64,000 bases of DNA from assembly GCA_900538545.1 (NCBI GenBank), contig UPYK01000004.1:30098-94097 (forward strand), given 5' to 3'. Under the pieces are notes generated by a model, which was given only the letters and a program-made list of their open reading frames with translations, had not been told where the DNA came from and made no database searches. This DNA comes from an uncultured Eggerthella sp. (GTDB lineage Bacteria; Actinomycetota; Coriobacteriia; Coriobacteriales; Eggerthellaceae). The position numbers and the translations under genes were made by a program. Within the stretch, counting starts at the first letter, position 1; each line of letters opens with the position of its first letter. Below, in pieces: positions 49,439 to 49,977 of the stretch.

Positions 49439-49639
49439 GTTGTATGCACCTCCGCAGGGATTGCACGTACGTTGAGCGCGACACAGGGTGAAGCGCGGTT
49501 TATTCAGTATGAACCAAGGTATGAACTACCCTAGTGATACGCGCAGAAATTGTACCAAAAAACACATGCAGCGCTCGTACAATCCCTTTAAGCGGTTCAT
49601 GTTAGGTGGGGGTGGAGTTGCAGCCTGCGCCTGCTGCGC

Positions 49640-49900
49640 AGGCTGTCATCCCTAGGAAATAAAACGAGCCCCGTAGGGCTCGTTTGAATTTCTGGTCGGG
49701 GACAGAAGTTCATGCGCGTCAAGGCCGAGCCACTGCGTGGTTGCTTCGCAAGCCTTGACCCGCATGGCTGAAGTGCTTGAAATAGCACTTCGGTGAACCT
49801 TACGGTTCAAATCCTTGCAGGCATAGCCTGCACCAGCTGTGCTGGTGGTCATCCCTCACAAATAAAACGAGAGAGCGAATTGCTCTCTCGTTTAAATTTC
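49640..49900. repeat. hairpin-dense segment with a duplicated tRNA-Pro 3'-end and terminator unit
   Basis: Two similar ~60-nt units (49646..49710 and 49845..49913): CATCCCT, then AAATAAAACGAG-hairpin-CGTTT, then AATTTCTGGTCGGG(G/A). At least four further perfect 7-10-bp hairpins lie between them. Confidence 0.4.
49862..49895 (-). terminator. rho-independent terminator of tRNA-Pro
   Basis: Perfect 10-bp stem (ACGAGAGAGC...GCTCTCTCGT), followed on the minus strand by UUUUAUU. Confidence 0.55.
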
Positions 49901-49977
49901 TGGTCGGGATGACAGGATTTGAACCTGCGACTTCTTCGTCCCGAACGAAGCGCGCTACCAAACTGCGCCACATCCCG
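49901..49977 (-). tRNA. tRNA-Pro: tRNA-Pro (anticodon CGG)
   Basis: 77-nt cloverleaf folded by hand: acceptor CGGGATG/CATCCCG, D-arm GCGC-AGTTTGGTA-GCGC, anticodon loop TTCGGGA, T-arm GCAGG-TTCAAAT-CCTGT, discriminator A, encoded CCA. Confidence 0.85.

Follow-up and report, generated by a model that had tools for sequence, protein, structure and literature searches.

A hairpin-rich tandem repeat between tRNA-Pro and tatA in a gut Eggerthellaceae bacterium, and a similar hairpin in plasmids and mobile elements

The segment described here, in the following named X, comprises about 200 bp and is located next to the tRNA-Pro(CGG) gene in the genome of a human-gut Eggerthellaceae bacterium. The window, i.e. 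the whole stretch of DNA that was analyzed, has a length of 64 kb (64,000 nucleotides) and represents a housekeeping region. Among the described systems, the cis-mobilizable elements (CIMEs) are decayed integrative and conjugative or integrative and mobilizable elements, which keep both attachment (att) sites, attL and attR, at the 3' end of a tRNA gene (PMC5704250). Like a CIME, X lies directly 3' of an intact tRNA gene, shows direct repeats of the tRNA 3' end, comprises no integration or transfer genes and occurs in tandem arrangements. However, its size is about 200 bp instead of kilobases, it contains no gene remnants, in this species its repeats also include a terminator and a hairpin, and no helper is known for it.

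In Pseudomonas putida, MITEPpu9/ssr9, a miniature inverted-repeat transposable element (MITE) of the insertion sequence (IS) ISPpu9 from the IS110 family, is thought to be mobilized in trans and is sometimes duplicated in tandem (PMC12288879). The likeness consists in a small non-coding structured module with an IS110-family association, which is found alone or beside a transposase and in tandem. In contrast to X, ssr9 possesses a promoter of its own, its RNA has been detected, and it inserts in repetitive extragenic palindromic (REP) sequences (PMC12288879). Moreover, the borders of ssr9 are formed by A'/B' boxes and an AG core, those of X by a tRNA end, and the two show no sequence similarity.

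A further comparison concerns the best-conserved hairpin of X, hairpin 5, which corresponds to a motif also found in plasmids. Single-strand origins (sso) and Frpo-type promoters are folded single strands, which are recognized by host RNA polymerase or primase (PMC4595007, PMC11541004). As in these systems and in single-strand initiation sites (ssi), the segments are non-coding, strand-specific and heavily folded over 100-300 nt (PMC4595007, PMC11541004). The folded stem would offer a double-stranded -35 (TTGAC) and -10, the mini-hairpins resemble those of the G4 origin and of RSF1010 ssiA (PMC13037366), and the motif is found in Rep_1 plasmids on the rep strand. On the other hand, X is chromosomal and its copy has no -10 at proper spacing, and the likeness is one of fold and context, not of ssoA, ssoT, ssoU, ssoW or Frpo sequence or of the ssoA hallmarks RSB and CS-6.

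Bacterial interspersed mosaic elements (BIMEs) composed of REP sequences and variable-number tandem repeats (VNTRs) of the mycobacterial interspersed repetitive unit type resemble X in their intergenic position after gene 3' ends, in mosaics of palindromic units, in strain-variable copy number and in an IS110-family neighborhood. While REP/BIME are dispersed in tens to hundreds per genome, X is found at a single locus in 64 kb, is tied to one tRNA and has a longer unit. Actinomycete integrative and conjugative elements of the pSAM2 type integrate in the 3' part of tRNA-Pro, replicate by rolling circle, need a single-strand origin and live in Actinomycetota hosts. pSAM2 comprises about 11 kb with int, xis, repSA and tra, and its att identity segment covers 58 bp from the anticodon loop. 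Compared by description, the Actinomycetota host and the tRNA-Pro 3' target are shared with the locus of X, while X differs from the 11-kb pSAM2 by its size of about 200 bp and the lack of genes.

Altogether, the finding on X joins three known kinds of elements, the att-flanked remnant, the MITE-like module and the VNTR, and the cross-phylum hairpin is the more interesting lead. With about even confidence, we regard X as a cargo-less, att-flanked remnant of an element that integrated into tRNA-Pro and is now a VNTR or minisatellite, with hairpin 5 as the homologue of a probable single-strand signal.

Structure and strain variation of X

An earlier note on this DNA had reported that the tRNA-Pro 3' end and its terminator recur about 200 bp away. 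This was confirmed with a spacing of about 205 bp, and the direct repeat turned out to be longer than first noted, comprising about 80-85 nt. Its first block, CTCGTTT(G/A)AATTTCTGGTCGGG, covers 22 nt (49679-49700 vs 49887-49908; 95% identical, spacing 208), and a second block, which was absent from that note, covers 47 nt (49622-49668 vs 49825-49871; 81% identical, spacing 203). The repeat of about 80 nt thus contains hairpin 1, GTCATCCC, an intrinsic terminator and the last 13 nt or so of the tRNA. The T-arm had been counted as part of the repeat, but in the window only the acceptor 3' strand and CCA are repeated (TGGTCGGGGACAG, 49693-49705). A perfect 12-nt copy of the T-arm is present inside the segment in inverted orientation (GGTTCAAATCCT, 49804-49815 vs 49914-49925). 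Directly after each terminator follows GGGATGAC(AG), which is the complement of the acceptor 3' strand.

The three stem-loops named in the earlier note were all found, and its count of at least six perfect ones agrees with six stem-loops with a stem of at least 7 bp in 49620-49890 (270 bp). The unusual hairpin density holds true as well: the segment represents the densest 400 bp of the window, in which 47 hairpins with such stems occur altogether, corresponding to about 0.3 per 400 bp. Compared to shuffled sequences, the folding of the segment showed z-values of -8.9 (RNA) and -9.0 (DNA), and 0 of 200 shuffles folded as well.

Read on the tRNA-sense (minus) strand from 49901 down to 49694, X comprises terminator 1, GGGATGAC, hairpins 1 to 5 and a decayed copy of the tRNA 3' end (Table 1), the part after hairpin 5 being AACTTCTGTC-CCCGACCA. 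Two terminator-like hairpins are present on this strand, one at either side of the hairpin segment (terminators 1 and 2 in Table 1), and the gap from terminator 1 to X amounts to only about 5 nt. The strand that forms the hairpins is the one richer in G and has the same orientation as nearly all genes. It would be the lagging-strand template, an argument of little weight which fits an RNA-sense strand equally.

X shows only short, overlapping, spurious open reading frames, and a promoter scan gave no promoter-like site in or before X on either strand. ARAGORN detected no tRNA or tmRNA in X, and the best non-tRNA matches to Rfam 15 had E > 2, far below the gathering scores. A tmRNA or an intron-bearing tRNA was rejected based on the negative ARAGORN result and the lack of D, anticodon or T arms. 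The same holds true for a double-stranded promoter serving tatA, since terminator 2 would separate it from tatA, which is served by a conserved, probable extended -10 of its own. The segment is best understood as a DNA-level repeat between tRNA-Pro(CGG) and the tatA promoter and not as a gene. On the chromosome, X probably has no autonomous function beyond bidirectional terminators between tRNA and tatA.

For the comparison of strains, loci were taken from contigs encoding identical TatA, GreA or NlpC/P60, which yielded 27 distinct conspecific contigs. Six of these contained no copy of X, 16 contained one and four contained two, while one showed an assembly gap. A similar distribution was seen among the ten contigs with an NlpC/P60 identical to that of the window (L226-L235), with no copy in two, one copy in six and two copies in two. 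The units are arranged head-to-tail and have a length of about 190-208 nt (191-208 among the parsed units). While the flanks of X are nearly invariant, X itself is highly variable; in three loci (L011, L012, L229) the tandem copies within one genome are nearly identical. The locus is a VNTR or minisatellite, as documented by the head-to-tail units and by copy numbers that differ between closely related strains.

Altogether, 14 distinct units were distinguished. They are mosaics of two terminator types and of hairpin variants, of which there are three each for hairpins 1 and 4 and two each for hairpins 2 and 5, and the unit of the window is itself a recombinant of the two main types. Terminator 1 of type T1 is swapped for type T2 in other strains, hairpin 4 is replaced by unrelated hairpins (TTAATGCGCT...AGCGCATTAA), and every alternative module is again a hairpin. 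In contrast, AGGATTTGAACCGT in the region of AGGATTTGAACC and hairpin 3 is invariant among the units, and the alleles U02 and U12 retain a perfect CTGTCATCCCGACCA at the distal tRNA-end copy. Changes on both sides with pairing kept were found for 11 of the 45 predicted pairs. These changes reflect a small number of module swaps and not a series of independent compensatory events. Among the alleles, the putative closing stem is eroded, its 3' strand being GTC-CCCC, GAC-TCCC, GCT-TCCC or GTCATCCC.

The comparison of occupied and empty sites proposed in the earlier note gave 0, 1 or 2 units, whose borders coincide exactly with the repeated tRNA 3' end. However, the 0-copy alleles retain GGGATGAC and hairpin 1 behind a single terminator. 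Since they keep the first module of X, they are deletion derivatives and not naive sites, and a naive X-free target site was not seen in the 27 contigs of this species. Gain and loss can accordingly be attributed to recombination or slippage between the repeats of about 80 nt, and the present polymorphism is best explained in this way and not by fresh integrase events.

In this genome, X is a fast-changing and probably neutral repeat, which would offer a handy strain marker for a prevalent gut species. It is also a place where assemblies break. In a metagenome scaffold of more than 1 Mb (L004, ~2700-2800), a run of N is located exactly at the locus; this scaffold probably carries two or more units, the repeat breaking the short-read assembly.

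The hairpin 5 motif in plasmids, insertion sequences and integrative elements

Instances of the motif were collected with the search pattern CGGGTCAAGSC-N15-45-GSCTTGACGCG. Since the interior of the motif aligns poorly, a sequence profile from 41 unrelated instances was used instead of a covariance model. In the window, the profile showed a single match (49711-49764, E = 4.5e-9), and it also matched the locus of another Coriobacteriia species (L068). Hairpin 5 and the motif instances have in common an asymmetric CGGG/CGCG box, a G.G mismatch and an interior of two mini-hairpins. On the sequence level, these data show hairpin 5 to be a homologue of a conserved hairpin of plasmids, IS110 and tRNA-integrated elements. 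Among the instances, the outer stems co-vary and the interior consists of two or three mini-hairpins. The pattern matched 5 viral contigs, of which 3 are credible, and at least 120 metagenome contigs (L096-L215). A search in Rfam with four of the motif loci (L068, L092, L094, L095) and with the viral loci gave no family for the motif.

The motif was found in 80 plasmid records. In pBBR1 (L236, 1275-1327) it is located about 450 nt upstream of rep, in the region labelled pBBR1 oriV on vector maps. Further carriers are a Citrobacter relative, RepL/MobV plasmids of 2.3-3.2 kb and plasmids of Mycobacterium and Streptomyces. In the Zymomonas plasmids of 1.6-1.7 kb with the motif, the only gene encodes a rolling-circle initiator of the Rep_1 family (E = 5.6e-87). 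Among the Rep_1 rolling-circle carriers of 1.6-2.3 kb, the motif lies on the rep strand in all three cases (pZMO1B, pZMO1960_1A and pYQ39). A function as transfer origin (oriT) of MobV plasmids was rejected, since rep-only Rep_1 plasmids and IS elements carry the motif as well and since it lies in varying orientation to mobV.

Besides plasmids, the motif is found inside IS110-family elements (23 loci, assigned with Pfam), where its distance to the IS end is about 170 nt and both orientations with respect to the transposase gene occur. Due to the variable orientation, a bridge or seek RNA of IS110 is unlikely. A REP-like target site of IS110 is unlikely too, since the motif lies within conserved IS sequence at this distance from the end. 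The motif also adjoins IS3 transposases and tyrosine recombinases, and it occurs beside tRNA-adjacent integrases, in the order tRNA-Met, integrase, motif in one locus (L111) and motif, integrase, tRNA-Gln in another (L132).

The loops of the mini-hairpins point to single-stranded DNA. In 107 motif instances 176 hairpin loops were counted, of which 101 are triloops, and 81 of these have the form C-GNA-G. The C-GNA-G triloop is a signature of very stable DNA mini-hairpins, as in the G4 complementary-strand origin, in RSF1010 ssiA and in N4 promoters (PMC13037366, PMC3201870). The DNA fold of the motif showed z-values from -8 to -12, and the loop-bearing strand folds 3.7 kcal/mol better than its complement, being the better one in 80 instances vs 23 (p = 5e-11). 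Strand-specific intrastrand pairing, as described for sso, is thus present. Replicons with a single-stranded stage, such as Rep_1 and mobilizable MobV-type plasmids, carry the motif, while X does not reside in such a replicon.

TTGACG is invariant in the 3' arm of the motif, although this is imposed by the search pattern. On its 3' side, 56 of 117 instances showed nAnnnT at a spacer of 15-17, most often at spacer 16 (39 instances), and the control strand gave none. Because the triloops, the strand bias and the TTGACG/nAnnnT arrangement resemble sso and Frpo, we infer that single-stranded DNA is the most likely form in which the motif is active, namely as a single-strand origin or promoter of the sso, ssi or Frpo type.

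The motif, which is strongly conserved, strand-specific and absent from Rfam, is common to plasmids of Actinomycetota and Pseudomonadota (including the region upstream of rep in pBBR1), IS110 and integrative elements, and may matter more than X. If it is a single-strand origin or promoter, it would be a factor, open to testing, that determines the establishment and host range of vectors in wide use and of mobile DNA in general.

Two groups of motif loci showed additional features. In one IS110-family element (L097, L118, L129, L140, L160, L174, L192, L204, L211), the transposase gene is followed by a non-coding region of about 500 nt with the motif in antisense. In the same group, a GTATCT core is found both at an internal junction and at the end, pointing to a MITE-like module that has docked beside the IS110-family element, as in ISPpu9/MITEPpu9. 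The second group consists of long-hairpin elements of about 145 nt in soil metagenomes with terminal inverted repeats CGTCGCTCCGG...CCGGAGCGACG and unique flanks (L106, L110, L122, L131, L156, L189, L196, L205 and others). They show a -35 TTGACG in the stem and a conserved A.AAT -10 in an internal bubble, and in at least two loci an antitoxin-like reading frame follows (DUF433-like and ParD/CopG-like, as judged by eye). From their sequence, these elements look like mobile single-strand or pre-melted promoters.

Origin of X and alternative explanations

The synteny from tRNA-Pro to tatA is kept in 78 other Coriobacteriia species loci, among which only L068 shows an extra inverted or direct copy of the tRNA end, and an X-like element was found in none of 76 other species loci. 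Homologous elements at the same position, between NlpC/P60 with tRNA-Pro and tatA, were detected in two distant Coriobacteriia (L068 and L151). L068 contains a perfect palindrome (3226-3295), whose 25-nt arms comprise the tRNA-Pro 3' end, the trailer and the terminator hairpin together with their exact reverse complement. Behind it come GGGATGAC and hairpins, then the three-way hairpin known from X, and ATCCCGAC. As RNA, this palindrome would be predicted to compete with the acceptor stem. Rfam gave nothing beyond the tRNA for L068, the match to MIR7486 being only the long palindrome.

L151 is a metagenome contig of a third distant Coriobacteriia lineage with the same order of NlpC/P60 and tRNA-Pro. 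Behind its tRNA-Pro(CGG) gene there is first a hairpin and then 15 nt of the T-arm of this same tRNA in inverted orientation. After further hairpins come a reduced three-way hairpin, which is identical to the type-b module of the window species in 27 of 31 positions, and finally the flanking repeat. The latter matches the tRNA-Pro end of L151 itself perfectly and in direct orientation over 19 nt, beginning in the T-loop and ending with CCA. A repeat of this extent remains after integration by integrases with a crossover in the T-loop (integrase sublocation rule), and the one in L151 looks as it would at such att sites. In both elements, the repeats match the own tRNA.

In the window, too, a direct repeat of the tRNA 3' part flanks the segment, as in genomic islands (CTGTC-CCCGACCA at 49693-49705 vs the tRNA end at 49901-49915). 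Putatively, the ancestor of X would have integrated site-specifically into the T-loop or 3' end of tRNA-Pro. It would then have lost all but the repeats of attL/attR type and a non-coding single-strand signal, leaving a miniature CIME, MITE-like and without integrase, and this remnant would persist as a minisatellite that changes by recombination or slippage between the repeats of about 80 nt. As in a CIME, att-type repeats are kept and genes are absent, the repeats being putative recombinase substrates. As a MITE, X is less typical: GGGATGAC and GTCATCCC resemble inverted terminal repeats but are copies of the tRNA end, and neither a target-site duplication nor a second copy in the 64 kb or in the flanks of the 80 species loci was found. 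High-copy dispersed palindromes as in REP/BIME were not found within the window. Read as a remnant, X shows how far a tRNA-integrating element can shrink, namely to about 200 bp of hairpins between att-type repeats, which amplify as a minisatellite.

The earlier note had taken the repeats as a scar of integrase-mediated insertion or excision. The att-like repeat geometry and the polymorphism of occupied and empty loci support this view in part, while the missing integrase and the VNTR dynamics of today do not. Several points weigh against the reading of X as an integrated remnant with a single-strand signal. The insert has only about 200 bp without an integrase or any gene, and tblastn with integrase and IS110 queries gave no match in the window. 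An integrase or a parent element at this tRNA was detected neither in the 27 conspecific contigs, where NlpC/P60, tRNA and tatA are directly adjacent in every case, nor in the window or the phage database. An origin from a phage attP was rejected, since X had no match in the phage database and 45 viral contigs with a tRNA-Pro 3' end proved to be phage tRNA genes or att sites without X-like hairpins. Furthermore, the repeat runs past the tRNA into the terminator and hairpin 1, which fits a homologous duplication equally well, and the same position in three lineages could reflect an old chromosomal feature with many losses. The search for further copies of X covered 64 kb of this genome. Concerning the single-strand signal, the motif copy of X has no -10-like hexamer at the right spacing, the copies of pBBR1 and of mycobacterial plasmids show odd spacings, with no nAnnnT at spacer 15-17 in pBBR1 and the M. 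avium plasmid, and no description of the motif was found in the literature on its sequence, on pBBR1 hairpins and on Zymomonas plasmid origins.

The first alternative, which we consider rather unlikely, is a purely local origin. It would consist in a tandem duplication of the tRNA-Pro 3' end with its terminator, followed by palindrome growth through template switching or hairpin-templated repair, without a mobile element, and hairpin 5 would result from convergence or be a captured fragment. A repeat that takes in the terminator and the next hairpin, i.e. more than an att core, fits this explanation. The same holds true for a copy number that moves by unit steps, for 0-copy alleles that are deletion derivatives, for the lack of an integrase nearby in the window and for modules that do not recur within 64 kb, even with up to 3 mismatches allowed. 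However, the profile match of hairpin 5 together with the common box, mismatch and interior makes convergence unlikely, the homologues in L068 and L151 carry repeats of their own tRNA, and 76 other species have the locus without X.

The earlier note had also offered a small structured RNA. Such an RNA with tRNA-like ends (5' GGGAUGAC paired to 3' GUCAUCCC-GACCA) would arise if transcription from the tRNA-Pro promoter passed terminator 1 and the tRNA-processing enzymes trimmed the product, and might pair with or mimic tRNA-Pro. The very stable fold with its acceptor-like closing stem, the hairpins that survive two-sided changes and the 8 + 12 nt of X complementary to the tRNA 3' half would agree with it, as would the GNRA/GNA loops on the tRNA-sense strand, where a few G.T wobbles favor the same strand. 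Contrary to this, the Rfam check proposed in that note gave no family beyond tRNA, neither at gathering thresholds nor at E <= 10, ARAGORN was negative, and a promoter is missing, with terminator 1 directly upstream. In addition, the closing stem is not maintained among the alleles, X is dispensable in 6 of 27 contigs, modules are swapped wholesale instead of co-evolving, and the loops are mostly DNA-type C-GNA-G triloops. An RNA is accordingly judged improbable.

Quite improbable in our view is an active non-autonomous cassette comparable to MITEPpu9/ssr9 or integron cassettes, which would leave its site as a small circle or a single strand and return to the 3' end of tRNA-Pro via a recombinase encoded elsewhere in the genome. 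It would explain the tandem copies, and the near identity of such copies within a genome, the patchy species distribution, the clean repeat from T-loop to CCA in L151 and the presence of the motif in IS110 and integrase-bearing elements are in line with it. There is also the precedent of a small RNA/MITE module that is mobilized in trans and duplicated in tandem (PMC12288879). Yet a naive X-free target allele was not seen in the species, copies at other sites were found neither in the 64-kb window nor in the flanks of the 80 species loci, tblastn identified no recombinase in the window, and unequal crossing-over between the repeats of about 80 nt explains the unit steps equally. Highly improbable, finally, is the joint proposal that the hairpin CGGGTCAAGGC-[two C-GNA-G mini-hairpins]-GCCTTGACGCG would be an undescribed cross-phylum single-strand initiation or promoter signal of rolling-circle and mobilizable plasmids (including pBBR1), IS110 and tRNA-integrating elements, and that the X units would be live miniature cassettes traveling as folded single strands, whose ends GGGATGAC...GTCATCCC re-create a double-stranded tRNA-Pro attachment site (cf. 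integron attC and CTX-phage attP) and whose sso-like hairpin primes duplex conversion after insertion.

Features and surroundings of X

On the minus strand, the genes are arranged in the order nhaA, NlpC/P60, NlpC/P60 terminator, tRNA-Pro(CGG), hairpin segment, tatA, greA, lysS and clpC. The positions of the features are summarized in Table 1.

Table 1. Positions of X, its modules and the neighboring features in the window, and of the motif in two plasmids.
Feature	Position	Strand	Basis or remark
Complete unit X, 208 nt, allele U00	49694-49901	minus	33 loci parsed for units; 14 distinct units aligned
tRNA-Pro(CGG) gene; last ~13-20 nt = proximal direct-repeat copy	49901-49977	minus	ARAGORN; Rfam RF00005, 67.2 bits
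Intrinsic terminator 1, type T1, stem AAACGAGAGAGC/GCTCTCTCGTTT then T-run; first element of X	49865-49893	minus	terminator scan, inverted repeat
GGGATGAC (plus strand GTCATCCC), inverted copy of tRNA acceptor 3' strand, 5' edge of X	49846-49853	minus	invariant in all units
Hairpin 1, CACCAGC-ACA-GCTGGTG	49831-49847	minus	three interchangeable alleles in population
Hairpin 2, GCAGGC-TAT-GCCTGC	49816-49832	minus	
AGGATTTGAACC fused to hairpin 3 (GAACC-GTAA-GGTTC)	49795-49815	minus	holds 12-nt inverted T-arm copy
Hairpin 4, GAAGTGCT-ATTTCA-AGCACTTC	49770-49791	minus	
Hairpin 5, three-way junction, CATG-CGGGTCAAGGC-[TTGC GAA GCAA][CCAC GCA GTGG]-CTCG-GCCTTGACGCG-CATG	49711-49766	minus	inverted repeat, DNA fold
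Distal decayed direct copy of tRNA-Pro 3' end, CTGTC-CCCGACCA, attR-like	49693-49705	minus	
Intrinsic terminator 2, type T2, AAACGAGCCC-TACG-GGGCTCGTTT	49662-49685	minus	
Terminal partial unit, GGGATGAC + perfect 10-bp hairpin CAGCCTGCGC/GCGCAGGCTG	49621-49653	minus	present even in 0-copy strains
Probable extended -10 of tatA, TGGTACAAT (inferred from sequence)	49549-49557	minus	downstream of cassette; conserved in all strains aligned
tatA	49097-49438	minus	
NlpC/P60 terminator	50103-50130	minus	
NlpC/P60 gene	50158-51240	minus	
Motif in pZMO1B	L284 1441-1485		
Motif in pYQ39	L237 389-436		

In the assembly collection, the TatA of the window occurs in over 7,800 blocks; the host species is a very prevalent gut Eggerthellaceae. 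The GreA of the window shows 100% identity to the GreA of a metagenome-assembled genome of an 'uncultured Eggerthella sp.'. At the putative tatA promoter, a consensus promoter scan gave no full -35/-10 site. The 180 nt upstream of tatA (49440-49620, minus) are nearly invariant across strains and comprise a 19-nt imperfect inverted repeat (49456-49474 / 49569-49587), and this region may form a structured leader.

Among the neighboring genes, the NlpC/P60 protein differs in length between strains (353, 359 or 360 aa in L001-L010 and L216-L235), which may be caused by indels in a linker rich in Ala, Ser and Asn. In two contigs, ClpC was called truncated with 627 and 321 aa, which could originate from a frameshift or an assembly error. 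Apart from the locus of X, the sequence AAT(G/T)CCTGTTCAAT(A/G)GG occurs twice (58881-58902 and 58947-58968). The two copies, at a distance of 66 nt, lie in the intergenic stretch preceding a transporter-like gene (57445-58833, minus), and judged by its arrangement this pair looks like operator sites.

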